Shown: piece after piece, positions 5,682 through 43,548 of the stretch
Layout of the letters: every line of letters starts with the position of its first letter
Numbering within the stretch: position 1 is the first letter of the stretch
Assembly: GCA_965247625.1 (NCBI GenBank)
Contig: CBDFHL010000006.1
Coordinates: 34,755-98,754 of the forward strand
Source of the DNA: Methyloglobulus sp.
Lineage (GTDB): Bacteria; Pseudomonadota; Gammaproteobacteria; Methylococcales; Methylomonadaceae
Direction of reading: 5' to 3'
Length of the DNA: 64,000 bases
Program-made: the position numbers and the translations under genes
Notes under the pieces: generated by a model
Database searches by the model: none
The model's input: only the letters and a program-made list of their open reading frames with translations
Told to the model about the DNA's origin: nothing

Positions 5682-5692
5682 CTAAATTACTC

Positions 5693-7375: not shown

Positions 7376-7396
7376 TCTAAACAGGAATAAACGAAC

Positions 7397-7765: not shown

Positions 7766-7868
7766 GCATTTATTCCGGTTATGCTAGATGCCTTTTTACC
7801 TATAAGTTTTTTGATAGCCTAAAGGCAACCGATACGGTCAATCTTGGGACGTTCACGGGCAATCCATT

Positions 7869-8636: not shown

Positions 8637-10009
8637 AGCAATACTCCTGCCTGTTCTAACCAGGGTTTGAGGTAAGTGACCGACAATCCAGCGATACCGC
8701 AGAGGGCGATCACTGGGATGACACCGGCTTTATAACGCAGTAAAGCCAGTAATGCGGACAAGCCAATCAGTGCGGCCACCGCATCAAAACGGCCTTGGAA
8801 ACCTTGCGGCCAAAATACGTGATAGGCAAAAAATGCCGCTAGGTTGAGGATAACGCCGACCACGGCGGCGGTGATACCGGTCAACGGTGCGGTAAACTTC
8901 AAATTACCGTGGGTCGATTCGACCAAAGGCCCACCTGCTAAAATGAACAGGAAACTGGGTAAAAAAGTAAAGTAGGTCACAACACAAGCCGCCGTTGCAC
9001 CGGCCAGAAAAAGTTGGTCAGCGCCAAACAATTCCTTAGTCCAACCGGCCACGAAACCGACAAAAGTAACGACCATAATTAACGGTCCCGGTGTGGTTTC
9101 GCCCAAAGCCAAGCCGTCGATCATTTGATGGGCAGTCAGCCAATGATAATGTTCCACTGCCCCTTGATAGACATAAGGCAATACGGCGTAAGCGCCGCCA
9201 AAGGTCAGCAGCGCCGATTTGGTGAAAAACCAACCCATCTGGGTCAATGCCCCGTCCCAACCGTAACGGCCACATAATAAGCCGATTACGCCGCCCCAAA
9301 GAATTAAGCCGATCACTATCAGCTTGCCTAAGCGTTTCCTGCTGAATTTGGCGTGTTCAGGAGTCGGGGTGTCGTCATCGATCAGTGCCTTACCATAACT
9401 TTGTTTTGCGCTGCCGTGACCGCCACCGGTGGCAAATTTCTGGGGCGTAAACTTTCCCCCCAACGAACCTAACAAACCTGCTATCAAAACAATCAACGGA
9501 AACGGCGCATCGAATACGAAGATAGCAACAAATGCCAAGCCAGCGATTGTCCACAGCAACTCGTTTTTCAAAGCGCGGGAACCAATGCGATAGGCTGCGA
9601 ACAAGACAATGGCTGTAACTGCTGGTTTAATGCCGTAAAGCACTCCCGCCACTGTGGGTAAATGGCCAAATGCCAGATAAATCCAGCTTAGGCCAATCAG
9701 GATGATGAGGGACGGCAGCACGAACAAGCTACCCGCTATTATTCCGCCCCAGGTACGATGCATTAGCCAACCAATGTAAATCGCCAACTGTTGGGCTTCA
9801 GGACCCGGCAGCAACATACAATAATTGAGTGCATGCAGGTAACGCTGTTCGGAAATCCAGCGTTTTTTCTCGACTAAATCCTGGTGCATGATGGCAATTT
9901 GCCCGGCAGGCCCACCGAAACTGATGAAACCCAGTTTTAACCAATACCAAAAGGCTTGGCCTAATGAAACAGAAGGTGGCGGCATTTGTGATGGATCGGG
10001 TTGGTTCAT
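8633..10009 (-). CDS. chrA: Chromate ion transporter ChrA
   Basis: 458 aa and polytopic. It shows the duplicated CHR-family pattern (LGFISFGGPAGQIAIMH... and a second half ...LLTFGGAYAVLPY). Confidence 0.92.
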   Translation of the reverse strand: MNQPDPSQMPPPSVSLGQAFWYWLKLGFISFGGPAGQIAIMHQDLVEKKRWISEQRYLHALNYCMLLPGPEAQQLAIYIGWLMHRTWGGIIAGSLFVLPSLIILIGLSWIYLAFGHLPTVAGVLYGIKPAVTAIVLFAAYRIGSRALKNELLWTIAGLAFVAIFVFDAPFPLIVLIAGLLGSLGGKFTPQKFATGGGHGSAKQSYGKALIDDDTPTPEHAKFSRKRLGKLIVIGLILWGGVIGLLCGRYGWDGALTQMGWFFTKSALLTFGGAYAVLPYVYQGAVEHYHWLTAHQMIDGLALGETTPGPLIMVVTFVGFVAGWTKELFGADQLFLAGATAACVVTYFTFLPSFLFILAGGPLVESTHGNLKFTAPLTGITAAVVGVILNLAAFFAYHVFWPQGFQGRFDAVAALIGLSALLALLRYKAGVIPVIALCGIAGLSVTYLKPWLEQAGVLL

Positions 10010-10959
10010 AGATCGATTCCTACAAAAGCCTGGTAATAGGCATCAAAAATTTTGTTCGTTTCGATAAGTAAATCATCATCGGAAGACAACCGTTGCCTCA
10101 TGCCCCGGATCAAGGTTTCTAAGCCAGCCGCTTCCACGACAGGAATTCCCCCTACATCTAGGTAATGTACTAGACTACCGATTCTATTTAGTGCGGAATC
10201 CTTAGCCAACCCAAAACCCCCCAGCAACACTTCAAAAGTCACTTTTGCACCGATATGCGTAAACTCAGCCCCGTCAAAATCAAATCCTAATGCATCGTCA
10301 GGACACTCAATTGGTTCAGATATCCAAATAAAACGAGCATTGGAATCGATAAAACGGTGGATTAGCCAAGCGCTGGCAAGCCGGTCAATCCAGGGACGTT
10401 GACGGGTCGCCCATATCCGGCCTTGGTAATCTTCTATATGTAACCGCCTAATTCGTCGATGCACAGCATGGGGTTCATTGGGCGAAAGGTGTTCAGTGAC
10501 TGAATGTTCTAAATCTTCCAAGACAGAGGAAGCTTGCTCCTGCGCTACACGGGGAAAAAAATCCTGGAAGGCAATGGCTTCAAAATCTTTACGCAACCGA
10601 TAGACCTGTTTTTGAAGTTTGGACAGATCGGCTGGTTGGATATTCAAGCCGGCGGTTTGCTGAATAGCTTTGACCAGTTTTGCGTAATCAGTTGAACGGT
10701 CGAATAGGTTTTCGAAGATTATTTGTTGTTCCTGATTTTCGCTATCTAAAGCCAGGATATGAGCATTCCCTCCACCGGCAATAATATCCTCAGCCTGAAC
10801 CTGAAGCGTCTGCCGGAACTCTTTACGATAAGGCAATAAATACACACCGTCGCGCAATACGCCACAACCCAGCGCTTTGAGTGCCCGCCACACGCGCATC
10901 CTTCCGGCGGAGTTTTGGGTCGGTAGGCTGACGATAAGAATAAGCCAAGCAGGACTCAT
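10006..10959 (-). CDS. chrB: ChrB-like chromate resistance regulator protein
   Basis: The N-terminus LIVSLPTQNSAGRMRVWRALKALGCGVLRDGVYLLP is typical of the ChrB N-domain. It has a 4-nt overlap with chrA. Confidence 0.85.
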   Translation of the reverse strand: MSPAWLILIVSLPTQNSAGRMRVWRALKALGCGVLRDGVYLLPYRKEFRQTLQVQAEDIIAGGGNAHILALDSENQEQQIIFENLFDRSTDYAKLVKAIQQTAGLNIQPADLSKLQKQVYRLRKDFEAIAFQDFFPRVAQEQASSVLEDLEHSVTEHLSPNEPHAVHRRIRRLHIEDYQGRIWATRQRPWIDRLASAWLIHRFIDSNARFIWISEPIECPDDALGFDFDGAEFTHIGAKVTFEVLLGGFGLAKDSALNRIGSLVHYLDVGGIPVVEAAGLETLIRGMRQRLSSDDDLLIETNKIFDAYYQAFVGIDL

Positions 10960-11018
10960 AAAATATGTTCTTTTATAACTATAATGTTTATTATTCTACA
11001 TTATTAAGAATGCAACGC

Positions 11019-11044
11019 AAAAAAAAGGGGCATTAAGCCCCCTT
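11019..11044 (-). terminator. Rho-independent terminator downstream of the protease gene
   Basis: On the - strand the sequence reads GGGGC-TTAAT-GCCCC followed by T8 (stem 11027-11031/11037-11041, A-run 11019-11026 on +). It lies 24 nt after the stop at 11068. Confidence 0.75.
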
Positions 11045-11067
11045 CCCTTTTCATTGGTGAATTTTTA

Positions 11068-13314
11068 TTACCATGTCACCGTTATCACCGACTTGGTATT
11101 ACGGCCAGGATTGTAAACATAACCTAATGCTTCAATTCCAGTTAAGGTAAAAGTAGCCGACCCACCGTTTACTGTAGTTATCGGGGTAGCTGTTTGTTGG
11201 GCAACACCATTTGTGGCTGTTTTACTGCTGACACCACCAGAAAAAGATCCCGACCAGATCCCTTTAACTACAGCGTTGGGTATCAAGCGTCTTTTATCAT
11301 CAACCACAGTAACATCTATCTTTGCTGAAACAGTCTTGCTTCTAATTACGCTCAGCCTTAAAGATGACGCAGAAAAAGTAACGGGTGGCGGTGGTGTTAC
11401 CGTAACCTGAACAGATTGCGTATGTGTTAACAGAAACTCATTTGTAATTGTTAACGTCGCTGTGTAAGTACCTGTTTTGGTATAGGTATGAGCAGGCATT
11501 GGACTCGACGAATAGCCACCGTCACCAAAAGACCATTGATAACCGATGATACGGCCATTTCCCACGGAGCTTTTGGCAGAAAAATTAACCGCTAATGATG
11601 CTGGGCCAGTTAGGGTTGAAGCGGATAAGACGGCTGTTGGCGCTGCCGCAATGCCAGAGGATGTATAAGATCCAGTGATTTGATATTGCCCAACACTACC
11701 ATAAGTTGAATATCCTAAATCAGCTCCTGAAGCGGTATGCGCTGAGCCTTTGACTGATAAGAAATACGTACCAGCCGATACCGTTGTGCTTATCGTAGCA
11801 GAAAGATCCGACTCCGGCGCATTTGTGCTGATTGTTGCACCACTAGCCTTATACAGGGTTAGCTTTATATCAAGGTTTGGGCCTTTCGTCGTGGGTTTTA
11901 CTGTAATATTCATCATTCCACCGGCGGTATCGATCCGGTACATATCAATATCGTTAGCACTTTCAATTACGCCCGATGTTAAAATTGTCGCAGGAGTACC
12001 TGATGCCGCATTCGACAATGAACCCGCAGTCGTAAAGGTATTGCCCACATCGTCTGTCCTTTGAACAAATCCATTTGACGCCAATACTGAGAAATCATCT
12101 TGCTTATTGTTAGCATCTTGATATTCGCCTTTGCTCCATTGGCTTAGATTTTTGTAGTAACCTACTCCCATAATTGGCGCCCATGCTGTCGTGCCGGTAC
12201 CATGACCAGAATAATAGCCGTTCACAGTAGTACCTACCCTTTGGCCATCATGGAATAAACCTAACGTATGTCCAGCTTCGTGCGATACGGCTTCAGCGAT
12301 ATATTTTTCGTTGTTCCCTAATGACTGTTGAAATACCCAAGCCGGTTGATAAGACGTGTTATTTACCATAGAAACAACCCCAACATAAGCCACACCGCCA
12401 CAACTACAACTTACTGTACCGGTTTTAGTAATGACAACCCGTGTTCCATAGGTATTATCAGACGTGCTTGACCGTAGTAATGCATCTGCTGACGGCGCTT
12501 CTGTAGTGACATCAACATCGAAAGGAATGTAATCCTCAGCCACCCTACTCCAAATGCTAACTATATTACTCAACTCGTTATCATTGAAAGCTGCCGGATT
12601 ACCATCCAGGTCATAAGCAGGCGCCACGATTGTTGATGCTGACCATGCCGTATTGCTGGCGGTATGACCATCAAAGTCGAGGTATATGGTTTTGCTCGCG
12701 CCAGGCTTGCTATGTAAAGCAAATGCGTTAGCGGCTGTCGTGGATAAATCGATGGGCAGCCCTGGGCTATTTGCCGTCGCACCATTCGCTGTAACTCGAC
12801 CAGTAAAAGTCTCGTTGCTTGACAAGTGTTGCCCTATAGAATCATCAACGTAAAAAATACGTTTAGTTTTATCGATACGAATTGTGTTATCGGTTAATAG
12901 GAGCTCTTTAAATTTATCTGGGGTAAACCCGTGCCGTGAAGCAATTTTAGGTAAATCAGCGCCAATGTAATCGATTGCACGTTGGCCTTGGTAATTTTCC
13001 GGCATTGCCACGGATGAAACCGCATCTGGAGAAACTAGTTTTGCGTTTGCTAAAGCACTTGCAAAAGAAGGGTGCGCATCTTTGCCAGAACCATTTGCAC
13101 CTGCATCGACAACTTGTTTTATTTTACCAAGTTGATCCATTTCAACAACATAATTCCGCCCGTGCATCACCGAATTAACCAATTCACGATTTTGGCCGAG
13201 ATGTTTGCCAGCTAATTGCGTTTTGTCGCTGGCATAACTCAATGGAGACAAAACAAAACTCGTAGCAATAGCAGATAATACGATTCTTGATCGTATATTT
13301 TTTGAAACATTCAT
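11068..13314 (-). CDS. Secreted zinc metalloprotease (metzincin-type) with PPC and PKD modules
   Basis: HEAGHTLGLFHDG (HExxHxxGxxH). PPC-like segment ..DIDMYRIDTAGGMMNITV... PKD-like segment WSFGDGGYSS..HTYTKTGTYTATLTITN. Signal peptide MNVSKNIRSRIVLSAIATSFVLSPLSYA. The track start 13323 is GTG; ATG at 13314 has an AAGGTG SD sequence. Confidence 0.88.
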   Translation of the reverse strand: MNVSKNIRSRIVLSAIATSFVLSPLSYASDKTQLAGKHLGQNRELVNSVMHGRNYVVEMDQLGKIKQVVDAGANGSGKDAHPSFASALANAKLVSPDAVSSVAMPENYQGQRAIDYIGADLPKIASRHGFTPDKFKELLLTDNTIRIDKTKRIFYVDDSIGQHLSSNETFTGRVTANGATANSPGLPIDLSTTAANAFALHSKPGASKTIYLDFDGHTASNTAWSASTIVAPAYDLDGNPAAFNDNELSNIVSIWSRVAEDYIPFDVDVTTEAPSADALLRSSTSDNTYGTRVVITKTGTVSCSCGGVAYVGVVSMVNNTSYQPAWVFQQSLGNNEKYIAEAVSHEAGHTLGLFHDGQRVGTTVNGYYSGHGTGTTAWAPIMGVGYYKNLSQWSKGEYQDANNKQDDFSVLASNGFVQRTDDVGNTFTTAGSLSNAASGTPATILTSGVIESANDIDMYRIDTAGGMMNITVKPTTKGPNLDIKLTLYKASGATISTNAPESDLSATISTTVSAGTYFLSVKGSAHTASGADLGYSTYGSVGQYQITGSYTSSGIAAAPTAVLSASTLTGPASLAVNFSAKSSVGNGRIIGYQWSFGDGGYSSSPMPAHTYTKTGTYTATLTITNEFLLTHTQSVQVTVTPPPPVTFSASSLRLSVIRSKTVSAKIDVTVVDDKRRLIPNAVVKGIWSGSFSGGVSSKTATNGVAQQTATPITTVNGGSATFTLTGIEALGYVYNPGRNTKSVITVTW

Positions 13315-13413
13315 ATCGGTCACCTTTATAAAAAATTAATCTCAACAAGCATACCAACCGAGCCAACTTGCTAAGGACGATCACATTTACTGGTGATCAA
13401 AATATAGATAAAT

Positions 13414-13429
13414 GTGCCTATATGGGCAC
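13414..13429 (-). terminator. Possible terminator hairpin downstream of the mtd-like gene
   Basis: GTGCC/GGCAC stem with a 6-nt loop. The - strand continues with a T-rich but interrupted tract (ATTTATCTATATTTT). Confidence 0.3.
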
Positions 13430-13544
13430 GTTACGGAACTCAATAATTTAAGCCGATGAGACTATAACAAAACTTTGGATATATATTTGCGACATAGCTC
13501 TAAAATTTATATCGAAAACTTACAGCTACGGTTTAGAAAAGGAT

Positions 13545-14450
13545 TTATTTGGCCATCTCGCGTTTTTTGAGTAATGACAGGGCAAAGGCATAAGTCTCTG
13601 GAAGATCAATGAGCGCTGTTTTACTTGCTGTTTGAATCTCCTTGAATAAGCCAAGTTGGGCTTTATATTTTAAACTCCCAATCCCTAACGGCCCGATACT
13701 GCGGAAACTACCATGCGCGTAATCAACAGGTGTGCCCAAATCATGCAAATTAACCCCTAAAACCCCACTAGGGGGAACAGCATTAGTATCAGCCACCACC
13801 ATTAAACTTTTAGCGTTGTTTAAATGTCCCTCCAAAATACGGATACCCGCTTTGGCTGCACAGATAATTATTTCTGTGTCAGCAATTTCTGTTGTTTTTT
13901 CTTTGTTGGTTTGTGTTGAAACCCATTGTACATCAGTCTTATAGCGCTCAAAGAAGCGCTTAGCGGCGGCTTGATCATCTTCTGCAAGTAGCTTACAGAG
14001 TTTAACGCTAGCACCCTGCTTCGCTGCTAGCATAGCGGCACTTACGCCCACGGGGCCGGAACCAAATACAGTTACCTTTCGCCCCTTTAAGCTACTGTTA
14101 AAATGCTCATCCAAAACCTGCTCAACCAATGCCACGATACTTGATGATGTGGTATAGGCACCGTTAGGGTCGGCAAAAACCCCTATTTCAAAGGGGCTAA
14201 CCATGGCATTTTTAGCGCTTTGAAACATATCGCTCGCCAAGTGGACGTCACGGCCACCGATAAATATTCCGGTATGATTAAATCGATTTGGCGGACGGCA
14301 GAAGATGGCATCTTGAACCATACCAGTGACTTGTTTTAGCTCGACATTCGTGAGCGGTATCACCATATCAAATCCAGCATCAGCCGCAATAGTGGCATCA
14401 AATGGGCTTATATTTGCGGCAGGTGTTAAAAAGTAAAGGATTTTTTTCAT
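13545..14450 (-). CDS. Methylene-tetrahydromethanopterin/tetrahydrofolate dehydrogenase family (MtdA/MtdB-like)
   Basis: It appears colinear with what I recall of MtdA: FIGGRD (vs FVGGGD), DPNGAYTTSSSIVALV (vs DSNGSNTTAAAGVALV), GRKVTVFGSGPVGVSAAMLAAKQGA (Rossmann), VADTNAVPP, GPLGIGSLKYK. Confidence 0.8.
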   Translation of the reverse strand: MKKILYFLTPAANISPFDATIAADAGFDMVIPLTNVELKQVTGMVQDAIFCRPPNRFNHTGIFIGGRDVHLASDMFQSAKNAMVSPFEIGVFADPNGAYTTSSSIVALVEQVLDEHFNSSLKGRKVTVFGSGPVGVSAAMLAAKQGASVKLCKLLAEDDQAAAKRFFERYKTDVQWVSTQTNKEKTTEIADTEIIICAAKAGIRILEGHLNNAKSLMVVADTNAVPPSGVLGVNLHDLGTPVDYAHGSFRSIGPLGIGSLKYKAQLGLFKEIQTASKTALIDLPETYAFALSLLKKREMAK

Positions 14451-14674
14451 TATTTGGCGGCTTCATATTTTATTTATACACGTCATAAATATAGTTGATG
14501 AATATTTAAATACTATGTAAGAAACCTTATGTTATACAGGCTTATTTCAGGATAATTGCGGCAGATAATGCGATAAGTGGCGGGTAAAAATGTTTTGATC
14601 GCATTTTACCCAGGAAAATATGAAAGTAAAATAGCGACAATCCGAAGGCCATGGCTTAAGGTTGAAGTTAACCG

Positions 14675-15874
14675 CTAATCTAAGCTGCTCAACACATCTT
14701 TAGCCCAAGTGATACTTTTAAAGTAAGCTTCACTAATCATTTTTTGATCCATACTCCTGAAATACATCCCGGAAAGATTCCAATGCTCATAATTTACAAC
14801 GCATTCAAGCGCTTCTCCCGCCAGTCCCTCTTTATTTAATATGGCTAATTTAACATCATTCGCTAACGGTAATTGTTGCAATGCCTCGTCCAGCGGGATA
14901 TCTAATATGCTGTCGATACTCGATAAAATACCAATAAGGAAAAAGTGATCCGCTTTTTCATCAGCAAATTTACCTAAATATTCACACATTTTTCCGCGGA
15001 TCAATGAGTTTTGCAGGGTAGCTTTAGGTTTATTGGACAAAGAAGCCAGCGTCAAAATATTGGACCAGCGTTTAACTTCTTTTAACCCCAAGTAAGATAT
15101 AGCATGCTGTATTGATTCAATCTTGCTAGGTAATGCAAAAAATGCAGAATTTATATAATGTAAAAGTTTATAACTAAGCCCGACATCCAATGATATTGTT
15201 TTTGCTAGCTGATCAATTTCTACCTCTGGATCATTGATGATAGTTAGCAACCTAATTGCAGCCGTTTGATTAACGCCTAGGCGTTTACCTGGAACAGTAT
15301 TGGGCTTGTTAAAAAAGAAACCCTGAAAATAATCACAACCTAATTCGCTTAGGTACTGGAATTCTTCATGAGTTTCTACTTTTTCTGCGAGCAGCTTAAT
15401 ATTATAGGATTTAAGATGCTTAATGGCATTCCTGGTTCTTTCCTCCCCCATTTCCAGAACATCTAGTTTGATAATGTCAGCAAATTCAATCAACGGTTTC
15501 CATTCATCTGAATAAACAAAATCATCTAATGCAATCGTATAACCTTGCTGGGAAAATTCCTTTAGGTTGTTGATGATTCTCAAGTCAACCGCAACATTTT
15601 CCAAAACCTCAATAACAACCCTGTCTTTAGGTAAGCTTAAAGGTGTTTTTTCTAGGATATTCTGCGAGGTAAAATTAATAAAAGCTTTGTGGGAACCTAC
15701 TAAGTTATTTAAACCGAGCTCAAGTATCGAGTCAGTAATTATTTGATTCGTCGCCTGGGTTGCTTCACTATTATTTTTTAAATCTAAATCTTTGCCTCTA
15801 AAAAGGAGCTCATAAGCATAAATATCCAACTTTTGATCAAGTATTTGCTGCCGTCCGATAATGAAGTCTGCCAT
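14675..15874 (-). CDS. EAL plus HDOD domain protein (c-di-GMP-related)
   Basis: N-terminal YELLFRG EAL-type signature with downstream DDF.. and ..KLD motifs. The C-terminal half resembles HDOD (..LLHYINSAFFALPSKIESIQHAISYLG..). Confidence 0.85.
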   Translation of the reverse strand: MADFIIGRQQILDQKLDIYAYELLFRGKDLDLKNNSEATQATNQIITDSILELGLNNLVGSHKAFINFTSQNILEKTPLSLPKDRVVIEVLENVAVDLRIINNLKEFSQQGYTIALDDFVYSDEWKPLIEFADIIKLDVLEMGEERTRNAIKHLKSYNIKLLAEKVETHEEFQYLSELGCDYFQGFFFNKPNTVPGKRLGVNQTAAIRLLTIINDPEVEIDQLAKTISLDVGLSYKLLHYINSAFFALPSKIESIQHAISYLGLKEVKRWSNILTLASLSNKPKATLQNSLIRGKMCEYLGKFADEKADHFFLIGILSSIDSILDIPLDEALQQLPLANDVKLAILNKEGLAGEALECVVNYEHWNLSGMYFRSMDQKMISEAYFKSITWAKDVLSSLD

Positions 15875-16013
15875 TTTGCTTATGTAGAGATATTGGGTTG
15901 GATGTTAGATAAAGTTAGCATAGAAAACAAAACTCAGTTGTAAATATAAATATCTTCCATTAATCCTATAAAAAAATAAATATTCACTATAATATTCAAC
16001 AAGTTATATAATT

Positions 16014-16029
16014 ATTGGCTATAGCCAAT
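16014..16029. repeat. 16-bp perfect palindrome ATTGGCTATAGCCAAT (candidate parS/centromere or module boundary), copy 1
   Basis: Perfect dyad 10 nt downstream of the parB stop. The same core recurs at 20283-20298. Confidence 0.6.
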
Positions 16030-16039
16030 TTCGCAGTTG

Positions 16040-17014
16040 TTATATGTAGCCGTCTATTACTGTTTTTAATAACTCAATGATGTCTTCTTTTGCCCCTAAC
16101 TCTTTCTTATCAATCAAAAGCTCTAGCTTTTTGTCATTACGTTTTTTTATAAAAACTGTTACTAAACCATTTTTAGAGACATACTGATTTTTAGTTTTGT
16201 TAGGTGTAACACTTGGGTTAACAGAATTTAATAATTCAGAAATAACCTTGGCCCCATCATAACCCTTCCCTTTCAATTCAATTGCTTTTTGCATTAAATT
16301 GTCTTTAATCGCCTTATTTTTTATTGAATTATTTAAGTAGGGTTTTAACTTTCTGGCGTGGATCACTTTAATGTCGGTTATATCCCGATAAGCGTTAACA
16401 ATTTGTTCAGGCAGGTCGGCAATATCGAGGTATCTGGATAACCAGCTTGTAGTCACTTCTAACCTATTCGCCATTTGGACTTGGTTCTTATAATAATGGC
16501 CAAGGGCATTTTTATAATCTAGCGCCCTCTCATAATCAGAAATATCTTCACGTGCCCTATTTTCAATATCTGAAAGCCTAAACGCTTCTTCATCTGATAA
16601 ATCCCTTATCTCAATAAAGTACTTCCAGCCAAGATATTGGCTGGTCCAAAACCGTCTAGCCCCGCAGATTATTTCATATTTTATTTCCCCTCCCCCTTCA
16701 ATTAACCTGACAATTCCAGGAAACTCCTGCTTGCCAGTTACCTTGAATTGGTCAATCAAATCTTTACATTTTATTTCATTGAGTAAGGCATAATCCCGAT
16801 TATGCCTGTCCCATATTTTGCATTGGCTGGGCTCAACGAGCAATCGGGGCGTTTTTACTTTGCTACCTGACATAATCTCTTTTGTTAAATTCAAGCCTTG
16901 CTCGAATTTATTTTGTCTGATGAAAGTATTATCGGTATCAACTTCACGTGTGTTTTTCTTTTCTTCTTCAATATTTTGCTTCAGTTCGGCAAAGAAATTT
17001 TTATTTTTATTCAT
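16040..17014 (-). CDS. parB: Plasmid partition protein ParB
   Basis: ParB/Srx-type N-domain with ICGARRFW (GxRR box). It lies 12 nt downstream of parA and has a GGAG SD sequence. Confidence 0.88.
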   Translation of the reverse strand: MNKNKNFFAELKQNIEEEKKNTREVDTDNTFIRQNKFEQGLNLTKEIMSGSKVKTPRLLVEPSQCKIWDRHNRDYALLNEIKCKDLIDQFKVTGKQEFPGIVRLIEGGGEIKYEIICGARRFWTSQYLGWKYFIEIRDLSDEEAFRLSDIENRAREDISDYERALDYKNALGHYYKNQVQMANRLEVTTSWLSRYLDIADLPEQIVNAYRDITDIKVIHARKLKPYLNNSIKNKAIKDNLMQKAIELKGKGYDGAKVISELLNSVNPSVTPNKTKNQYVSKNGLVTVFIKKRNDKKLELLIDKKELGAKEDIIELLKTVIDGYI

Positions 17015-17026
17015 AGCATAACTCCG

Positions 17027-18193
17027 TTAATCTAACCCTGCTTCTCTTAAAGCTTTTGCATGGCTTGGCCAGCTACGCCTAATCAAAAGCTCCACTTCTT
17101 TATTTACAGAATCAAGGATATTAAGGCATCTGTTATGCACTTTTGTTGATGTAATCGGGCTGTTTAATTCATATACCGTCCTTTGCCTATTTCCAGCACT
17201 GGCAATTTCGGCTGAATCCCTAAGCTTTGCAGTAAGAACCGATCCTTCAAATTGGTCATTAGCTAAGTCGACAAGTGCTTGTTGAGCACTTTTGTTTTCG
17301 TCATACCGGCTTATTAATATTTTCACGAATTTATATTCAATTGCCCCTAAATAGCGCTCTAAAGATTCCATAGAATTTTTGAGCATTGTTAAAAAGGAAA
17401 TGGTCGACGAAAAATCATACATAGCTGGTGGCATTGGAATTAATAAAGCGTTTGCCGCATAAACCACATTCAACGATATCATTCCCAAGGCTGGAGCGGG
17501 ATCTAAAATAATGATATCGTAATTTTCCTGAATGGTTTCTATGCCCTCTTTCAATAAAGTAAAGGTAGTCGCTGATGGTTTACTTGCTAATTCATACTCC
17601 GCTTGATAAAGCATAAGATTTGAAGGAATTAAATCAAGTGAATCCCAATAGGTTTTTCTGATATAGGGCGCTAACGTTTCTGCTTCTTCCCTTAAAAAGG
17701 GTAATAAGGTCTCACTCTCGTCAATATCGTCATCAGGAATATAACCAAATGTGGTAGTTGTACTCGCTTGTGAATCACAATCAATTATTAATACCCGATA
17801 ACCTTGTTTAGCAAGATACTGGGCTAAATGGCAAGCAACGGTTGACTTTGAAACGCCCCCTTTAAAATTTTGTATTGCCAAAATAACAGGTTCATCGTGT
17901 TTATCGCGATGAAGTCTAGTCCCAAAGACATCCCGCATATTATTTATTTGGGTTAATGAAAAGCCTAACCGTCTGCCATTAGCTCCTGTTTCAGGAGGTT
18001 GTAGCCTACCATCCGCTTCCGCATCCCGAATCGCTTGATAAGACCTACCAACTAATTCTTGTGCCTCTTTAAGCGAATACCTACGCTCGTCGTGTTTTAT
18101 ATTATCAGGTGAAAAGTTAAAATTTCTAAAGGAACGCCGCAGGCCTTCTGTATGTTCAAGCAGCTTATTAATTTTATCCAAACCTGTACCCAT
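17027..18193 (-). CDS. parA: Plasmid partition ATPase ParA (long, type Ia-like with N-terminal extension)
   Basis: Deviant Walker A motif QNFKGGVSKST, plus LIIDCDSQAS. About 100 aa of N-terminal extension, as in P1 ParA / F SopA. The track start 18229 is GTG; I prefer ATG at 18193 (TAGGT SD sequence, MGTGLDKINKLL...). Confidence 0.9.
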   Translation of the reverse strand: MGTGLDKINKLLEHTEGLRRSFRNFNFSPDNIKHDERRYSLKEAQELVGRSYQAIRDAEADGRLQPPETGANGRRLGFSLTQINNMRDVFGTRLHRDKHDEPVILAIQNFKGGVSKSTVACHLAQYLAKQGYRVLIIDCDSQASTTTTFGYIPDDDIDESETLLPFLREEAETLAPYIRKTYWDSLDLIPSNLMLYQAEYELASKPSATTFTLLKEGIETIQENYDIIILDPAPALGMISLNVVYAANALLIPMPPAMYDFSSTISFLTMLKNSMESLERYLGAIEYKFVKILISRYDENKSAQQALVDLANDQFEGSVLTAKLRDSAEIASAGNRQRTVYELNSPITSTKVHNRCLNILDSVNKEVELLIRRSWPSHAKALREAGLD

Positions 18194-18230
18194 ATTATTA
18201 CCTAACTTGATCATTATGTTATAATTCACA

Positions 18231-18243
18231 TTGATAATATCAA
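18231..18243. promoter_or_regulatory. Palindrome TTGATA-A-TATCAA upstream of parA (candidate operator overlapping a -35-like TTGATA)
   Basis: 6-bp arms around one central base, ~38 nt upstream of the preferred parA ATG. On the - strand TTGATA is followed 16 nt later by TAACAT. Confidence 0.3.
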
Positions 18244-18387
18244 GTACACCTGAAGTTGTCTATGTTTCTTTCCGATATTTCTTTTTATTTTTGGATTATG
18301 TATGTATATGTTTTTAAACAAAACATAACATATATATAGATTAATAAATATTTATAACAACATGAATAATATAGAGTTATTTTCATT

Positions 18388-18921
18388 GGTGGCGTAATTT
18401 CCGGGAAATTTAGGATTTAATGTGCTTTATATGTGTCTGATTTATATATGTTATTAAGATAATAATGATGAATAATGGTGGCTAAAATATAAATAAGGTG
18501 GCTAAATATACGGCTTAAGTAACCTAGCTTACTTATTGAAAATAAAAGAAAATAATCTAATATGATTATTTTTAGGTGGCTAAAAATTACGTAGTAATTG
18601 TAAAAGGTGGCTTAATTTCCGGTATTGGTGGCTAGATGTCAGGAATTAAAATAACTTGAATATACCCATAGATACTTAATCTCTATGTCCAGTTTAAGCT
18701 ATTGCCATTGTTAAATGGTGGCTAAATATGCGGGATTTGGCTCTTATAAATATCTTGAAAAGATATGATGGTGGCTTAAATTCCGGAGCGGTGTGTTTTG
18801 GTTGTTTGTACCCATATAAATCAGGGGATGTTCTTAAATTTCTCTGTTTTTTATAAAGGAAAGGTGGCTAAAAAACCGGAATAGGTGGCGTTAATTCCGG
18901 TAAAGGTGGCTAAAAATCCGG
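18388..18921 (+). repeat. Iteron array / oriV: 11 direct copies of GGTGGC(T/G)(T/A)AA(A/T)(A/T)(A/T)(T/A)CCGG-like 17-mers
   Basis: GGTGGC cores start at 18388, 18477, 18497, 18575, 18606, 18627, 18717, 18770, 18863, 18884 and 18905, all in the same orientation. The last three lie at ~21-bp spacing just upstream of rep. A very AT-rich stretch (18245-18385) sits beside them. Confidence 0.88.
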
Positions 18922-18993
18922 AGAATTTTAATGAGAATTCTGCCGCTGTTATAGGCATCTATTTTATTGAAGTAGTTTGGGATAAGGATTTTT

Positions 18994-20280
18994 ATGGTGA
19001 CTGTAAAAAAAGTTGAAGAGATTAATGCAATTGTAAAAAAGCATAAGGCCATTATTAATTGCGAGAACTCATTGCCTTTAGCTTCTAGGAAAATTTTTAA
19101 TATTCTGTTGTTCTTAGTTAAAGACAGATTCGGGAAAGATCTTGAGCATCACGTTTCCGAAAGTGATGTGATTTCTCTTTTAAATAAGACAGATAGGGAT
19201 ATTACAAACGCAAGGATCAACTATAAAAAATTGGCTTCCACAGTTATTGAATACAATATATTAAATAATGAAAGGGACCATCTTAATGGCGTTGGAACCA
19301 TGTTGGCTCCTGCGGTTATAAATAAAACCAAAAAAACCTGGAATTTTTCCTTTCCGCCAAATATTGTCCAATGGGTTCAGGATCCAAATTCATTTGTATT
19401 TTTGGATATTACGACACAAGAGCGTTTCAGCTCTAAATATTCACAAGCACTATGGGAAATTTGTATAGGTAGCTTAGAAGATCAGTTAGAGTCATATTTC
19501 TCAGTGAAATTAGATGAATGCCGTATTTTAATGTGCGGCAAAGATAATCATCAAATCTATAAGGATTTTAAACGCCGCGTTGTTATGACTGCAATTAATG
19601 AGATTAATGAAAAATCACTTTTGCATGTTGACTTATATCAAGAAAACAAAGAAGGGAGGAAGGTGACTGAATTAGTATTCTTTGTGACAAGAGAAGAATA
19701 TATTGAACCAAAACAACTGATTTCCAATGATGACTTGCTTGAGAAAATGGTTGAGGTATTTGGCATAACTGGCAATGTGGCCAATAAAATTATTAATACT
19801 TATGATAACGAACATATCTTAAGGAACTTGGACTACACCGAACAACAGTTTAAAAAAGCCATTAAAAATAAAAAAGAGAACCAGTTTAATGTTGGTGCTT
19901 ATGCAACTAGTGCGATCATTAAGGATTATGCCCCTAAACAAGCAAAATTATTATCTAGGGTTATCGAGGAAAAAGAGCATAAGAAAAGTACTGAATTAGG
20001 TTTAATTGAGTTAAATAAGAAAAATGATGATGAACTTGCAAAAAAAATCATGAAAAATTATGAAAAAATTGAACCTGTCTTGCAGCAGGGGTTAAAGACT
20101 GAGTTTGAAAAAAATGGAATTCGTGGCCCAATTAAAAAGCTTTTTAATTCTGAAGGATGGGGTTCTAAGCAAATAAACAACCATTTTTTTCTATTTCTTG
20201 CATCGCAAATAGAGCAAGGCAGAAAAGGGCAGGGCTATGATCAAATTAATGAATTTCTAGTTAAAAGTGCAACGCACTAA
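18994..20280 (+). CDS. Iteron-type plasmid replication initiator (Rep_3/RepB-like)
   Basis: 428 aa, directly downstream of the iterons. The N-terminal segment ..NSLPLASRKIFNILLFLVK.. resembles winged-helix Rep initiators. AAGGA SD sequence. Confidence 0.75.
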   Translation: MVTVKKVEEINAIVKKHKAIINCENSLPLASRKIFNILLFLVKDRFGKDLEHHVSESDVISLLNKTDRDITNARINYKKLASTVIEYNILNNERDHLNGVGTMLAPAVINKTKKTWNFSFPPNIVQWVQDPNSFVFLDITTQERFSSKYSQALWEICIGSLEDQLESYFSVKLDECRILMCGKDNHQIYKDFKRRVVMTAINEINEKSLLHVDLYQENKEGRKVTELVFFVTREEYIEPKQLISNDDLLEKMVEVFGITGNVANKIINTYDNEHILRNLDYTEQQFKKAIKNKKENQFNVGAYATSAIIKDYAPKQAKLLSRVIEEKEHKKSTELGLIELNKKNDDELAKKIMKNYEKIEPVLQQGLKTEFEKNGIRGPIKKLFNSEGWGSKQINNHFFLFLASQIEQGRKGQGYDQINEFLVKSATH

Positions 20281-20303
20281 AAATTGGCTATAGCCAATTT
20301 TTA
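20278..20303. repeat. 26-bp perfect palindrome TAAAAATTGGCTATAGCCAATTTTTA, containing copy 2 of the 16-bp core
   Basis: It starts inside the rep stop codon and sits between convergent rep and kfrA. It could also act as a weak bidirectional terminator. Confidence 0.6.
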
Positions 20304-20328
20304 TGTATATTACTGAAATATAACTAAA

Positions 20329-21237
20329 TTAATTATTGTGGGATTTTGGGTGTTTTTTTATAACGTTTTTATTTAAAAGGAGCCGTATTTTTTCTTCTCT
20401 GGCGGTGAGTTCTTTTTGTAATTTAGCTTCGATTAGGATCAGTCCAGCTTGTTTCAATTTCTCATCTGCATTTCGGCTTTCAAGTCCCATTATAATTTCA
20501 TTGTTTTTGCTGATTTGTTTGGCCATTGAGTCTAATTTGACTTGAAGTAATTTACTGCTTTGCTTGCTGCGGTCAGTTTCTGATTTCAGGCGATCAATTT
20601 CAGTCTTGAATTGCTGTTTAATAGTTTCTTTTTCTTCTTCGATACGTTTGATTGCCCACTCGTGTTCTTTAGTGTACTGCTTTTCAATCCAATTGTATTT
20701 TTCACGTTCTTGTCGTAGTTGCTCGGATAAAACGGCATTATTTTTTTCAAGTTTAGATGCAGCTGTATGGCAATACTCATTCTTTTCTATCAAATTTGTT
20801 GATTCAATCGATATCCGATTTATTTCTTTTTTTAGATGGTGTATTTCTTCCTGATATTTTTGTGCTGTCAGTTGCACCAGTTCTCGAATTCTAGATGTTT
20901 CTTCATTTAATGTTTTTTCTTTGTTCTCTAATACTGCCTGTTTGTTTTGTAAAATAACGGTTTCTTCATCAAAAGTTTTTTTTGCTTCAAGTAATGCTTC
21001 TTCCCATATGCCAGTCATTGCAGAAATTAGATGCTTTGGCATCGCCGGGTTGTGGGGTTGTGATTTATTTATTGCTTGCGATAAGTTGAGTTTCCAGTCC
21101 TTAATGGCACTAGAAATTGTCGTTGGGCTGTTGACATTAATAATCGGCTTGATTGATTCAATGGTAGGCATTAATCCGGTTTTTAAAAAATAAGCTTCAC
21201 ATGCTTCATATGCCAGGGTGTAAGTGGTTTTTTTCAT
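20329..21237 (-). CDS. kfrA: KfrA-like plasmid DNA-binding coiled-coil protein
   Basis: N-terminal KfrA_N-like segment (AYEACEAYFLKTGLMPTIESIKPIINVNSPTTISSAIKDWK), followed by ~220 aa of heptad-rich E/K/Q coiled coil. Confidence 0.75.
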   Translation of the reverse strand: MKKTTYTLAYEACEAYFLKTGLMPTIESIKPIINVNSPTTISSAIKDWKLNLSQAINKSQPHNPAMPKHLISAMTGIWEEALLEAKKTFDEETVILQNKQAVLENKEKTLNEETSRIRELVQLTAQKYQEEIHHLKKEINRISIESTNLIEKNEYCHTAASKLEKNNAVLSEQLRQEREKYNWIEKQYTKEHEWAIKRIEEEKETIKQQFKTEIDRLKSETDRSKQSSKLLQVKLDSMAKQISKNNEIIMGLESRNADEKLKQAGLILIEAKLQKELTAREEKIRLLLNKNVIKKHPKSHNN

Positions 21238-22932: not shown

Positions 22933-23988
22933 ATGACGCAATTACGTGTTGGAATTATCGGTCTTGGTAGGGTAGGGCGCGGAATTGTACGCGCAAATTT
23001 CGATCAAACCGAAGGTGAAAAATTTAACGTTTGCGCGTTATGTGATGTTATGCCAGAGGATCAGGTGACTTATTTATTGGCTAATGACAGCACTTACGGT
23101 AAGCCGCCTTATACGCTCGATTGTGGGAATAAATATATTGTCGTAGGGGGCAAAAAAGTAGCTTACGTCCGTGGGGACAGGCGGCGCAATATTCTTGACC
23201 ATGAAAGCTTTTCTGACCTTAGAAAATTAGAGTTGGATATCATTATTGATTCAACAGGCACTGCGAAAATTAATGATTTACGTGGGCTAATCGAGCAAAA
23301 CATTGCCAAAAAAGTACTCTGTACTGCCAATATTGCGGGTATTGATATCAGTATTGTCTATGGTGTTAACCAGGGACAGTATGATCCTTTGCAGCATCAG
23401 GTTATTGCCGCCAGTACCTGTACCGGCAACGCGATGACACCGGTGGCTTATATATTGAATAAACATATTGGTATTGACTACGCTAGAATCACGACCATAC
23501 ACCCGGCACTTTCCGACCAACGGGTATTGGATGGCTTCCATTTCTCTACTGCACAACTCGGCCGAAGCTGTGCAGCATCGATCATCCCGATTAGTACTAA
23601 TGTCGCCAAATCGACTAATTTAGTGTTACCTGAGCTTGAAGGTAAACTTGATTCCATCTCATACCGGGTACCCACAGAAATTGTTTCAGTGATGGACGTG
23701 ACAGCGACCTTAAGCCGAGATACTTCCCTAGAAGAATGTACAAAACTTTTGGAGCATTACGCCCAAAATGAGCTTAAAAATATCGTTCACTGCGAATACG
23801 GTTCTTGGGGCCACGAAAAAGCAAGCATCGACTATTTGGGAACTGAGTACTCAGTTATTATCCTTATGAAACATATGCAGCTGAGTCATAAACGGCAACT
23901 GGGGTTAGCTATGATGCATGATAATGAGCGTGCTTACTGTTGCCGCGTATTGGACGTTTTAGGCGTACTTCAGCAAGCATGGGGTTAA
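22933..23988 (+). CDS. Divergent glyceraldehyde-3-phosphate dehydrogenase family protein
   Basis: GLGRVGR (NAD fold), NDSTYG (vs YDSTHG), and the catalytic-Cys context ASTCTGN (vs SCTTN). Also TIHPALSDQ, IIPISTNVAKS, LPELEGKLDSISYRVPT and MHDNERAY (vs WYDNE). Confidence 0.75.
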   Translation: MTQLRVGIIGLGRVGRGIVRANFDQTEGEKFNVCALCDVMPEDQVTYLLANDSTYGKPPYTLDCGNKYIVVGGKKVAYVRGDRRRNILDHESFSDLRKLELDIIIDSTGTAKINDLRGLIEQNIAKKVLCTANIAGIDISIVYGVNQGQYDPLQHQVIAASTCTGNAMTPVAYILNKHIGIDYARITTIHPALSDQRVLDGFHFSTAQLGRSCAASIIPISTNVAKSTNLVLPELEGKLDSISYRVPTEIVSVMDVTATLSRDTSLEECTKLLEHYAQNELKNIVHCEYGSWGHEKASIDYLGTEYSVIILMKHMQLSHKRQLGLAMMHDNERAYCCRVLDVLGVLQQAWG

Positions 23989-24100
23989 AATACTTGTCTC
24001 CAAAATTATCTGAAGCTTATCGCATTGGCTACAAATAAAAGTTGATACCTTTACTGTCTTAATGACTGCATTAGGGCTGCGTATAGAATCGATAACTACA

Positions 24101-24126
24101 TATATTAACTAGCGCTAGTTTTCCGG
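24101..24126 (+). repeat. 26-nt direct repeat, copy 1 (TATATTAACTAGCGCTAGTTTTCCGG)
   Basis: It matches 25028-25053 at 24 of 26 positions. It contains the palindrome AACTAGCGCTAGTT followed by TT. Confidence 0.7.
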
Positions 24127-24283
24127 ATATTCAAATTCATGAGGTTTTTAGGGTACTTTTCCAGACTAAAAATTAGGTCTTCGTCGTAAAAATATGCTAG
24201 CAAATCTTGAAGATGACTTGAAGAGTGTTAATTGACATCCATATCTTTCGGATGATTAGCACACTTGAAGTATATATAATAAT

Positions 24284-24300
24284 GGTATAATTTATATACC
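24284..24300 (+). promoter_or_regulatory. brnTA promoter -10 (TGGTATAAT) embedded in the inverted repeat GGTATA-N5-TATACC
   Basis: An extended -10 element, TGnTATAAT, at 24283-24291, with a TTGACA at 24231-24236 further upstream. The inverted repeat abuts the brnT ATG at 24301, so the leader would be very short. Confidence 0.45.
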
Positions 24301-24564
24301 ATGATCTCATTCGAATTTGACGAAACCAAGAGCCAAGCCAACTTTTCAAAACATGGCATCAATTTTATGGAAGCACAGATGTTATGGCATGATCCCATGC
24401 TGCTGGAAATTCCGGCAAAAACATTTGATGAACCCAGATACTTGGTAATAGGGCTTATCGAGGGCAAACATTGGTCAGCCGTCATTACATACCGTGGTAA
24501 AGCTATTCGAATTATTTCTGTCCGTCGTTCACGAATTGAAGAGGTAACATTCTATGAAAGCTAA
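24301..24564 (+). CDS. brnT: BrnT-family (DUF497) type II toxin
   Basis: FEFDETKSQANFSKHGINFMEAQMLWHD... matches the BrnT N-terminal signature. 87 aa. Confidence 0.88.
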   Translation: MISFEFDETKSQANFSKHGINFMEAQMLWHDPMLLEIPAKTFDEPRYLVIGLIEGKHWSAVITYRGKAIRIISVRRSRIEEVTFYES

Positions 24565-24805
24565 TTTGTTTGATACACAATTTGATGAGGGTATCGATGT
24601 CACTGTGTCCCTCGATTTATCCAAAGCAAAACGCGTTTTGCTGGAGCAAAAACGGGTAAATGTTGATTTTCCTGCATGGATGATTGAATCGTTGGATCGG
24701 GAAGCAGGAAAAATCGGTGTTACTCGACAATCTATTATCAAGGTTTGGTTAGCCGAACGCCTTGAAGAATCAGTTTCTAAAAAACCGATCAATCGGATAT
24801 CTTGA
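24554..24805 (+). CDS. brnA: BrnA-type (CopG/RHH-like) antitoxin
   Basis: 11-nt overlap with brnT. KRVNVDFPAWMIESLDREAGKIGVTRQSIIKVWLAERL is the BrnA pattern. Confidence 0.85.
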   Translation: MKANLFDTQFDEGIDVTVSLDLSKAKRVLLEQKRVNVDFPAWMIESLDREAGKIGVTRQSIIKVWLAERLEESVSKKPINRIS

Positions 24806-25027
24806 CGCCTTAAACCACATGAGTTTAACGATTGAATTCTTCCTGTTTCGCTTCTAAGTCACTACAAAAGATTTCAAATGGTATTGTTGTTTAGCGAATA
24901 AAGATAAATGTCTTAATCGTTAATCTTATCGGGTCTGGTTAACGAAATCTTAACAAATAATTTTTATCCAAAAATAGCATAAGATCCTTAAAAACAACAA
25001 TATAAAAAATTGATATAAAGCTCTCCT

Positions 25028-25053
25028 TATATTAACTAGCGCGAGTTTTCCAG
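25028..25053 (+). repeat. 26-nt direct repeat, copy 2 (TATATTAACTAGCGCGAGTTTTCCAG)
   Basis: See copy 1. It lies 222 nt downstream of the brnA stop and upstream of the intron-like RNA segment. Confidence 0.7.
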
Positions 25054-25399
25054 CTTTGCGCTTGGGGGTGCATGGCTGGCAATAATTGCTAGAATTTAAC
25101 CGGTATTTTATCAATTTCTTGCATTTATTTCCCGCATTAATTTAATCTTTATACTATTTAATCAATAGGTTGTAATATTTTCAGGGACGACTAAATAGAT
25201 TTGCAGAGTTTCCATAGTAGTCTGAGATGGGGAAAACCTATTACCTGGCGAAGGGGAACAGTTTAAGGAATTTGCTTGGAAAATTACCTGACTCTAGTGA
25301 GGTGAAGACCTTTGATAATCAGTGAAATGCAAAACAAAATTGCAACGTGGGTTTGCGCTATTAAGACGTTGCAATGGCTATGAGCCATTCTTAAATGGA

Positions 25400-25484
25400 G
25401 AGCCGTATGCGCTGAAAGGTGCACGTATGGTTCGGGGAGAAGAAGCAGGGAAATAGTTCGACTACGTCCTGCTTCTTACTCTAC
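25400..25484 (+). mobile_element. Group II intron 3' end: ribozyme domains V and VI (no intron-encoded protein nearby)
   Basis: Domain V at 25400-25433 is GAGCCGTATGCGCTGAAAGGTGCACGTATGGTTC. It has a 9-bp lower helix with the AGC triad, a 2-nt AC bulge, a 5-bp upper helix and a GAAA loop. In domain VI, 25436-25449 pairs with 25468-25482, leaving A25478 unpaired as the 7th nt from the terminal ..CTAC (25484). The hairpins GCAACGT..ACGTTGC and AATGGCT-ATG-AGCCATT just upstream look like a domain IV stub. Confidence 0.85.
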
Positions 25485-25633
25485 TTCCGACTGCCGATAT
25501 GGCTCAACAAAAAAGTATTTGTATAGCTAGCTAAATAACAAAGGGTAGCGGATTGGGATCCGGTTGGGATTAATAAATACGATGCCGAAATTACTTCAGG
25601 TGGCGTAAATTGAGAAACCGAGGTAATTACGTA

Positions 25634-38262: not shown

Positions 38263-38283
38263 ATGTGTACCACTTAATTTTTA

Positions 38284-43512: not shown

Positions 43513-43548
43513 ATAAAAGCCTCTTAATTGTGCTTGAACTACCTGCAA

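Follow-up and report, generated by a model that had tools for sequence, protein, structure and literature searches.

We analysed a 64,000-nt stretch of DNA from Methyloglobulus sp. (GCA_965247625.1, contig CBDFHL010000006.1, positions 34,755 to 98,754 of the forward strand; hereafter the window) and found that the module at positions 15875 to 21237 is an intact plasmid-style replication and partition unit, comprising parB, parA, an iteron-type origin of replication (oriV), rep and kfrA. The module is best explained as the backbone of an autonomous megaplasmid or chromid-like replicon of at least 110 kb, with the chemotaxis (che) and flagellar (fla) genes around it as cargo. We assign this reading a probability of about 0.7; the element would then be a separate circular molecule. 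A search of 5.8 billion proteins found a Rep identical to that of the window (P0001) on a contig of 110,364 bp. The G+C (GC) content of the module was 34.1%, compared to 44.2% for each flank and 43.4% for the whole window. An earlier note on this DNA had described the same gene set between chemotaxis and flagellar loci, had called it more AT-rich than the che and fli genes on both sides, and had seen no relaxase, integrase or transposase. These statements all held, as every feature it listed was recovered in its place and Pfam scans of the open reading frames (ORFs) of the window contained none of the three mobility genes. The features of the core are as follows.

16014-16029: candidate parS-1, a perfect 16-bp palindrome, ATTGGCTATAGCCAAT, 10 bp past the parB stop codon
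16040-17014, - strand: parB, 324 amino acids (aa), candidate centromere-binding protein with SoPB_HTH and ParB_N domains (Pfam)
17027-18193, - strand: parA, 388 aa from a conserved ATG, type Ia partition ATPase with an N-terminal extension
18231-18243: conserved palindrome TTGATAaTATCAA, overlapping the predicted -10 element of the parA promoter
18231-18262, - strand: candidate parA promoter, sigma-70-like, with -35 TAGACA, a 17-nt spacer and -10 TATTAT
Putative ParA target sequence: TTGATAATATCAA
18263-18387: AT-rich stretch of 125 bp with 16.8% GC, candidate DNA-unwinding element
18385-18922, + strand: iteron array, 11 copies in the same orientation, consensus AaaGGTGGCTaAAatTcCGGtA
18994-20280, + strand: rep, 428 aa, initiator of the iteron-binding class with two winged-helix domains (WH1-WH2) and a helical C-terminal extension
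20283-20298: candidate parS-2, ATTGGCTATAGCCAAT inside a 26-bp perfect palindrome (20278-20303)
20329-21237, - strand: kfrA, 302 aa, DNA-binding KfrA_N head with a long coiled-coil tail

The comparison loci with the replicon were L001 (on an 81-kb contig), L003, L004, L005, L007, L012 and L025 (on a 63-kb contig). L002 and L006 were partial loci, and L010 and L011 carried the gene for the cargo protein EAL-HDOD in a chromosomal context. We also read 42 kb of contig_76663, a relative of 114,916 bp (European Nucleotide Archive, ERZ25039527).

Rep matched the Pfam models Rep3_N (37.8 bits, cut-off 22.4) and Rep3_C (47.6 bits, cut-off 21.1), so that hidden Markov models (HMMs) place the 428-aa protein with the replication initiators, as had been claimed for it. 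A sequence search of the Protein Data Bank (PDB) matched RepE. The AlphaFold model of Rep had a mean predicted local distance difference test (pLDDT) score of 76.5, and Foldseek matched it to RepE54 and pi with target-normalised template-modelling (TM) scores of 0.74 to 0.78 and E-values of about 1e-8. By its two tandem winged-helix domains, Rep is a member of the Rep_3/RepE-pi class and is predicted to bind the iterons. Residues ~245 to 428 (window positions 19725 to 20280) formed an all-helical extension of ~185 aa in the model, with pLDDT values mostly between 80 and 89. This extension was conserved in the family and in distant relatives in PLSDB, and had no listed fold match in the PDB.

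The AT-rich stretch opens the intergenic region between parA and rep and adjoins the iterons. Between 18388 and 18921, GGTGGCnnAnnnnnnGG was found in exactly 11 copies, all of them on the + strand, and the - strand of the intergenic region had none. With up to two mismatches permitted, the iteron had 52 matches in the whole window, compared to 17.6 ± 4.7 in shuffled sequences, and 11 of the 52 fell within 534 bp. The AT-rich stretch, the number of iterons and their common orientation were thus as the earlier note had described them. However, the conserved unit was ~20 to 21 bp long (AaaGGTGGCTaAAatTcCGGtA), not 17 bp. Successive copies were spaced by 89, 20, 78, 31, 21, 90, 53, 93, 21 and 21 bp, with the three nearest rep lying 21 bp apart. 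The relatives L001 to L005 had 8 to 11 same-strand iterons between parA and rep; among the partial loci, L002 had nine and L006 had four. Four of the window's copies (at 18385, 18494, 18603 and 18714) recurred every 109 to 111 bp over positions 18385 to 18743, a pattern suggestive of a larger repeat unit of ~110 bp in the array.

The partition genes lie on the other side of the origin, with parB 12 bp downstream of parA. ParB scored 86 bits against TIGR00180 (cut-off 58), matched ParB, Noc and Spo0J chains in the PDB, and was 68 to 82% identical across the relatives. ParA aligned to residues 27 to 385 of the 388-residue SopA model and to residues 18 to 385 of the 387-residue RepA model, and its top PDB matches were the P7 and P1 ParA proteins, with the alignment starting at residue 53. 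We assigned it to type Ia because of this end-to-end alignment with the SopA and RepA models and because P7 and P1 ParA are its best solved relatives. Both families are therefore those named in the earlier note, a long type Ia-like ParA and a ParB, but the start of parA was revised. The parA ORF (17027 to 18229, - strand) reaches a GTG start at 18229, whereas the true start is probably the ATG at 18193, which gene callers chose in the relatives. Together with the placement of Rep beside RepE and pi by HMM, by sequence against the PDB and by fold, the type Ia par genes agree with the iteron-type, low-copy theta replicon that had been proposed.

Upstream of parA, the candidate promoter matched 10 of 12 consensus positions and had a TG extension. 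The block of promoter and palindrome was invariant in the four loci aligned here (the window, L001, L012 and L004), and TTGATAaTATCAA is a likely operator for ParA autoregulation.

Two copies of ATTGGCTATAGCCAAT were present in the 64-kb window, one just beyond parB and one between the convergent genes rep and kfrA, where the surrounding 26-bp palindrome overlaps the rep stop codon. The motif ATTGGC-N4-GCCAAT occurred exactly twice per locus, at the same two positions, in 7/7 replicon loci (the window, L001, L003, L004, L005, L007 and L012), and in 0/5 chromosomal control loci. Its arms were invariant across the seven replicon loci and its 4-bp centre was variable, which fits recognition by a protein better than a role as terminator only. 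In type Ia systems, parS is normally located downstream of parB. The two palindromes are likely parS centromeres to which ParB would bind. The rep-proximal copy may double as a bidirectional terminator. We rejected the idea that the palindromes are terminators only, since T runs flank the rep-proximal copy but not the parB-proximal one. The list of elements in the earlier note had been incomplete here, as it overlooked both palindromes and also the BrnT/BrnA pair described below.

KfrA, noted earlier as a KfrA-like coiled-coil protein, scored 43.9 bits against KfrA_N (cut-off 26.1), and its tail weakly matched the crescentin rod. Its gene was the fastest-evolving one of the backbone, with 46 to 65% identity and a ratio of nonsynonymous to synonymous substitution rates (dN/dS) of ~0.16 to 0.21. 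The homologue in L001 (11362 to 12258) showed one in-frame stop in the tblastn alignment, so that either the gene is a pseudogene or the stop is an error of assembly or sequencing. No kfrA was present next to rep in L007.

From the protein families involved, we infer how the unit would operate. Rep monomers would bind the 11 direct iterons and melt the adjacent AT-rich stretch at ~18.26 to 18.39 kb, and replication forks would depart from oriV in both directions. Iteron titration and handcuffing would keep the copy number low. ParB would load on the two 16-bp palindromes that bracket the core, while ParA-ATP on the nucleoid would segregate the copies and would repress its own promoter at the palindrome overlapping the -10 element. 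KfrA would be an accessory DNA-binding coiled-coil protein that aids segregation, and BrnT/BrnA may add post-segregational killing in the lineage of the window. Origin firing, the protein-DNA contacts, the copy number and the existence of a separate circle are all predictions of this kind.

The earlier note had left two readings side by side, a megaplasmid or chromid carrying the motility genes and a plasmid integrated among them. Skew, selection and linkage favour the former, and the integrated plasmid is less favoured. The cumulative GC-skew minimum of the whole window lay at 18250, at the parA-side edge of oriV, and a minimum was found at the equivalent place in L001, L025, L003, L005 and L007. 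A per-gene regression separated the orientation of genes from their side of the origin. After correction for orientation, the side-of-origin effect in the window was +0.032 (standard error 0.008) for GC skew and +0.069 (standard error 0.017) for GC skew at third codon positions (GC3 skew); the respective values in contig_76663 were +0.027 (0.010) and +0.044 (0.014). Synonymous sites are saturated between contig_76663 and the window, yet the effect recurs. Genes on the - strand had a mean GC skew of -0.080 to the left of the origin and -0.018 to the right, and a mean third-position skew of -0.015 and +0.132, respectively.

Purifying selection on the backbone genes rep, parA and parB is strong. 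Their dN/dS values ranged from 0.01 to 0.05 (0.047 for rep and 0.010 for parA, with dS above 1.6). Values of dN were similar for the backbone and the flanking cargo, and the two have therefore co-diverged.

The linkage of backbone and cargo was also seen beyond the window. The search that returned P0001 found 64 Rep homologues at 45 to 100% identity, all from metagenomes or metagenome-assembled genomes (MAGs). The named sources were Methylobacter and Methylicorpusculum, and the closest named relatives of the neighbouring genes were from Methyloglobulus MAGs. The parB-parA-oriV-rep core was intact in all fetched loci, usually with kfrA. L001 (Rep 85% identical) was syntenic with the window from the PKD gene to MCP-PAS, and L025 (Rep 86%) from the CheY-like gene to the cytochrome; in L001, L012 and L025, the genes from PKD through EAL-HDOD remain beside parB. 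In contig_76663, the replicon is located at ~84 to 90 kb, and FlhA-FlhB-FliR...FliF...MotAB-CheW follow the window's order at 45 to 67 kb. Rep and FliF shared one contig in four lineages (contigs of 110, 115, 81 and 63 kb). Some insertions were specific to a lineage, namely chrBAC and BrnTA in the window only, Tn3, a resolvase and HigBA in contig_76663, and GGDEF and two HDOD genes in L025. No contig with a close Rep homologue was longer than 139 kb; those on which the cargo has chromosomal orthologues reach 0.3 to 2.9 Mb. None of the nine small relative contigs tested had a terminal overlap.

Outside this group, the flanks of L003, L004, L005 and L007 were unrelated to the window and looked like plasmid accessory DNA, with genes for a relaxase, a second ParA-like protein, a UmuC-like protein, the toxin-antitoxin pairs RES-Xre and PrlF/YhaV, and Fic, and with transposase fragments. 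The relaxase in L004 is MobA/VirD2-like and is encoded 4 kb from parB. A tyrosine recombinase of 577 to 580 aa with a C-terminal Phage_integrase domain adjoined kfrA in L003 (9791 to 11533) and L004 (11840 to 13573), both of which were without che/fla cargo; it could be a multimer-resolution or integration function of the family. PLSDB contained no near-identical DNA. Its closest Reps were 23 to 28% identical to that of the window, and none exceeded 28%. A scan of Joint Genome Institute (JGI) metagenomes gave only contigs of 8.4 kb or less.

Several observations weigh against an autonomous replicon. First, chromosomal fragments in metagenome assemblies commonly form contigs of ~100 kb as well, and the contig size therefore proves nothing. 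Second, the cargo left of the origin amounts to only 15.9 kb with only two + strand genes, so the skew switch is partly due to the divergent transcription of parAB and rep. Third, the cargo has chromosomal orthologues in related genera, and the region could therefore be native chromosome: FliF was 68% identical to a homologue on a 2.4-Mb contig that shares the local order FliK-FleQ-FliE-FliFGHIJ, and EAL-HDOD was 71 to 82% identical to copies in a chromosomal copA-hflD context. Fourth, the backbone has 34% GC as opposed to 44% in the cargo. Finally, the origin lacks two elements that were looked for. No DnaA box (TTATCCACA, up to one mismatch) was found in 18194 to 18993, the nearest match being TTATCCAAA at 18174 to 18182, within parA; DnaA boxes are common in iteron origins but not universal. 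There was also no inverted iteron, as the GGTGGC core was absent from the - strand of the intergenic region in every locus. The three rep-proximal direct iterons may take the place of an inverted operator in Rep autorepression.

Part of this evidence would also fit a plasmid of the family that was integrated in a chromosomal motility region in the ancestor of the clade, with the core now a passenger or an occasional secondary origin. The identities between the cargo and the chromosomal genes of related genera are typical of vertical descent, the flagellar gene order is that of the 2.4-Mb contig, the backbone lies ~10 GC points under its flanks, the window has no transfer genes, and contigs of 63 to 115 kb fit a plasmid and a chromosomal fragment alike. 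However, we consider integration unlikely. In lineages that are saturated at synonymous sites, the replicon genes are still intact and strongly constrained by purifying selection, as are the iterons and both palindromes, and the skew changes sign at oriV in two lineages after correction for orientation. Neither an integrase nor an empty site was found. No direct or att-like repeats or target-site duplication surround the module except the parS pair, and no pre-insertion site could be reconstructed, the chromosomal EAL-HDOD orthologues being in an unrelated context (copA-EAL-HDOD-hflD (DUF489)-ABC transporter). Furthermore, ~100 kb of linked sequence shows no housekeeping gene: neither the window nor the 42 kb read of contig_76663 contained ribosomal RNA, dnaA or ribosomal-protein genes, and no transfer RNA genes were found in the window.

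EAL-HDOD (14675 to 15874) itself has orthologues, 71 to 82% identical, in a conserved chromosomal context in Methylobacter tundripaludum SV96 and a Methylococcaceae MAG (L010 and L011). In a neighbour-joining tree, all rep-linked copies formed one clade and the copy in chromosomal context fell just outside. This topology fits a single capture of a chromosomal gene followed by co-inheritance.

A larger secondary chromosome or true chromid of more than 200 kb with essential genes, of which the 110-kb contig is a fragment, would be consistent with the plasmid-type replicon, with the long co-divergence of cargo and backbone, and with the occurrence of distant Rep relatives on replicons of 0.4 to 1.8 Mb. 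In addition, the window has no rod, hook or filament genes, so the regulon continues elsewhere. The chromid of Harrison et al. 2010 reportedly combines plasmid-type replication and partition with a GC content within ~1% of that of the host chromosome and with core genes that are chromosomal in relatives. A plasmid-type replication and partition system is present here. The cargo arms have 44.2% GC, resembling the 45 to 49% of chromosomal loci in related genera, which stand in for the host chromosome in this comparison. Related genera carry orthologues of the fla cluster and of EAL-HDOD on the chromosome. No essential housekeeping gene was seen. The 139-kb limit of contigs with a close Rep homologue, as opposed to the 0.3 to 2.9 Mb of the chromosomal ones, also argues against such a molecule, and the variable insertions (chrBAC, Tn3 and toxin-antitoxin pairs) look like accessory plasmid content. 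We regard it as improbable, more so than integration.

An assembly chimera, in which a small plasmid was falsely joined to a chromosomal che/fla region, would explain the abrupt GC drop at the module boundaries, and metagenome assemblies can yield chimeras, but we rejected it because the left junction (EAL-HDOD/parB) is the same in four independent assemblies (the window, L001, L012 and L025) from different samples and species-level lineages; moreover, the right junction (kfrA/DUF4143) is identical in the window, L001 and L012, with three extra genes inserted in L025, and two Logan assemblies contain identical ParB copies beside the same neighbours.

An autonomous replicon would carry the following cargo, in which MCP stands for methyl-accepting chemotaxis protein.

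1-15874, - strand: left-arm cargo, MCPs, CheA, STAS, CheY-like, chrBAC, PKD protein, MtdB-like, EAL-HDOD
From 21496: right-arm cargo, first part, DUF4143 ATPase, GAPDH-like, BrnT/BrnA, GGDEF, multihaem cytochrome, MCP-PAS, CheD, CheR
To 64000: right-arm cargo, rest, three poly-HAMP MCPs, CheW, CheY, MotAB, FlgMN, YcgR, FliEFGHIJ, FleQ, FliK, FliMNOPQR
24301-24805, + strand: BrnT/BrnA toxin-antitoxin pair, lineage-specific

No phage, type IV secretion system (T4SS) or other transfer genes were found among the scanned window ORFs. With no relaxase or T4SS genes among these ORFs, the window does not have the make-up of a conjugative or mobilisable plasmid, and we rejected a phage-plasmid or integrative and conjugative element since the window is without phage, integrase and T4SS genes.

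BrnT/BrnA is possible as a post-segregational stability module. The 1.6-kb segment that contains the pair (23989 to 25633) is absent in L001, where the gap between the GAPDH-like and GGDEF genes is 63 bp. A direct repeat of ~26 bp, TATATTAACTAGCGCnAGTTTTCC, flanks the pair at ~24101 and ~25030, and the segment is suggestive of a small insertion cassette. A match to domains V/VI of group II introns (Rfam RF00029; 62.9 bits, E 5e-10) was located at 25398 to 25484 on the + strand, in the 830-bp gap between brnA and GGDEF. No reverse-transcriptase ORF lies near it, and it probably represents what is left of an intron, either truncated or without an ORF.

In the left arm, the chromate-resistance genes chrB-chrA-chrC (7869 to 10959) lie between the CheY-like and PKD genes and have 47 to 51% GC, above their neighbours. 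They are missing at that place in L025, and contig_76663 has a Tn3 transposase, a resolvase and HigBA beyond PKD instead; accessory DNA appears to insert at this hot spot repeatedly. Two metabolic genes lie near the core. The MtdB-like gene (13545 to 14450) encodes a methylene-tetrahydromethanopterin dehydrogenase N-terminal domain, and the divergent GAPDH-like gene (22933 to 23988) scored 223 bits against the 367-bit cut-off for type I GAPDH. Both were also seen near the core in L001, L012 and L025, and they are probably extra copies of enzymes of one-carbon (C1) and central metabolism carried beside the origin. The three MCPs at 35371 to 43548 are tandem paralogues whose poly-HAMP arrays are long and built of HAMP_2 and HAMP_N3 repeats. 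The left end of the window seems to cut another gene with HAMP repeats, since the + strand ORFs at 57 to 834 look antisense to it.

We suggest, tentatively, that in a clade of uncultured Methyloglobulus-like methanotrophs the sole flagellar export apparatus of the cell, its motor and stator genes and its main chemosensory array moved to an iteron plasmid of ~110 kb from a Rep_3 lineage not described before. If this is true, motility in these bacteria hinges on keeping a low-copy plasmid, the genes of the flagellar regulon are divided between it and the chromosome, and the element is an incipient small chromid in a group without any reported. The analysis indicates that, in one clade, a substantial part of the genes for motility and chemotaxis travels with a plasmid-type origin, which bears on how chromids arise. 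We found no report of methanotroph plasmids with flagellar genes in the literature. The result also concerns binning, as replicon contigs may be mis-assigned or dropped, which affects the inference of motility from MAGs. In addition, the backbone family (Rep, iterons, type Ia ParAB, the candidate 16-bp parS and KfrA) is native to Methylobacter, Methylicorpusculum and Methyloglobulus-like methanotrophs, and could seed shuttle vectors for these genetically difficult organisms.

Compared to known systems, the machinery is ordinary, consisting of a RepE/pi-type iteron origin with a type Ia par system and KfrA. The closest model is mini-F. Like ori2/RepE, the window has a WH1-WH2 initiator and direct iterons beside an AT-rich region, and RepE54 was the top structural match (target-normalised TM score of ~0.75). 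However, the window Rep has 428 aa as opposed to 251 in RepE, carries an extra helical C-terminal half, and was 16 to 19% identical in structural alignments. Its 11 iterons are scattered, compared to 4+5 in mini-F, and neither a DnaA box nor an inverted operator iteron was found. ParA resembles SopA of F as a type Ia protein over the full length of the model, but its score of 250 bits is below the SopA equivalog cut-off of 725. ParB carries the SopB helix-turn-helix domain. The candidate centromere is based on a 16-bp palindrome downstream of the parB-like gene, as in sopC. Nevertheless, its two palindromes stand singly, 4.27 kb apart, on either side of the core, whereas sopC has 12 tandem 43-bp repeats.

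P1 and P7 provide the best PDB matches of ParA (P7 3ez9; P1 3ez2, 3ez6 and 3ez7), which are likewise long ParAs with an N-terminal regulatory domain. They share an iteron-controlled origin and a parS downstream of parB (a candidate in the window). In contrast to P1 and P7, the window has no phage genes, its palindrome is simple and without the IHF-site or box A/B architecture, and its Rep belongs to the Rep_3 family. KfrA of RK2 (IncP-1) has the same KfrA_N domain and long coiled coil and is also encoded in the maintenance region of a low-copy plasmid, but kfrA of the window is without the korA/korB/incC regulon and is convergent with rep.

Long Rep_3 initiators are the closest PLSDB relatives of Rep, among them those of pTs417 (Candidatus Thiodictyon syntrophicum), pND6-2 (Pseudomonas putida), Legionella longbeachae plasmids, and Caballeronia and Mycetohabitans megaplasmids. 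The alignments covered ~90% of Rep, including the C-terminal extension, the replicons range from 0.07 to 1.8 Mb, and a parA-parB pair adjoins rep in pND6-2. However, the identity was only 23 to 28%, the gene order differed, and no kfrA was annotated beside rep in the two loci read. Judged by its sequence, the Rep lineage is new, rather distant, and so far confined to metagenomes of Methylomonadaceae. Chromosome 2 of Vibrio is a weaker parallel. Rep showed some structural similarity to RctB domains 2-3 (E 4e-5), Vibrio cholerae ParA2 (7npd) was among the ParA matches, and both replicons are presented as secondary replicons descended from iteron plasmids, but there was no sequence-level membership, no crtS/39-mer logic was seen, and the scale is very different.

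Plasmid-type replicons that carry fla/che genes are known from the Ralstonia solanacearum megaplasmid, the Cupriavidus chromid and the flagellar plasmids and chromids of roseobacters such as Marinovum, and the conceptual gain is modest because flagellar genes on secondary replicons were already known. A FliF homologue was present in 245 PLSDB records, most prominently from Ralstonia, Azospirillum, Sulfitobacter and Cupriavidus, and was at most 45% identical to the window FliF. Flagellar plasmids and chromids of roseobacters are described in, for example, PMC12843797 and PMC11974857, and the extrachromosomal elements of this group are described as having RepABC-type replicons (e.g. PMC9426580), as opposed to the Rep_3 iteron replicon of the window. 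The window replicon further differs from these flagellar replicons in its host, a gammaproteobacterial methanotroph, and in its apparent size of ~110 kb, compared to up to 2 Mb.

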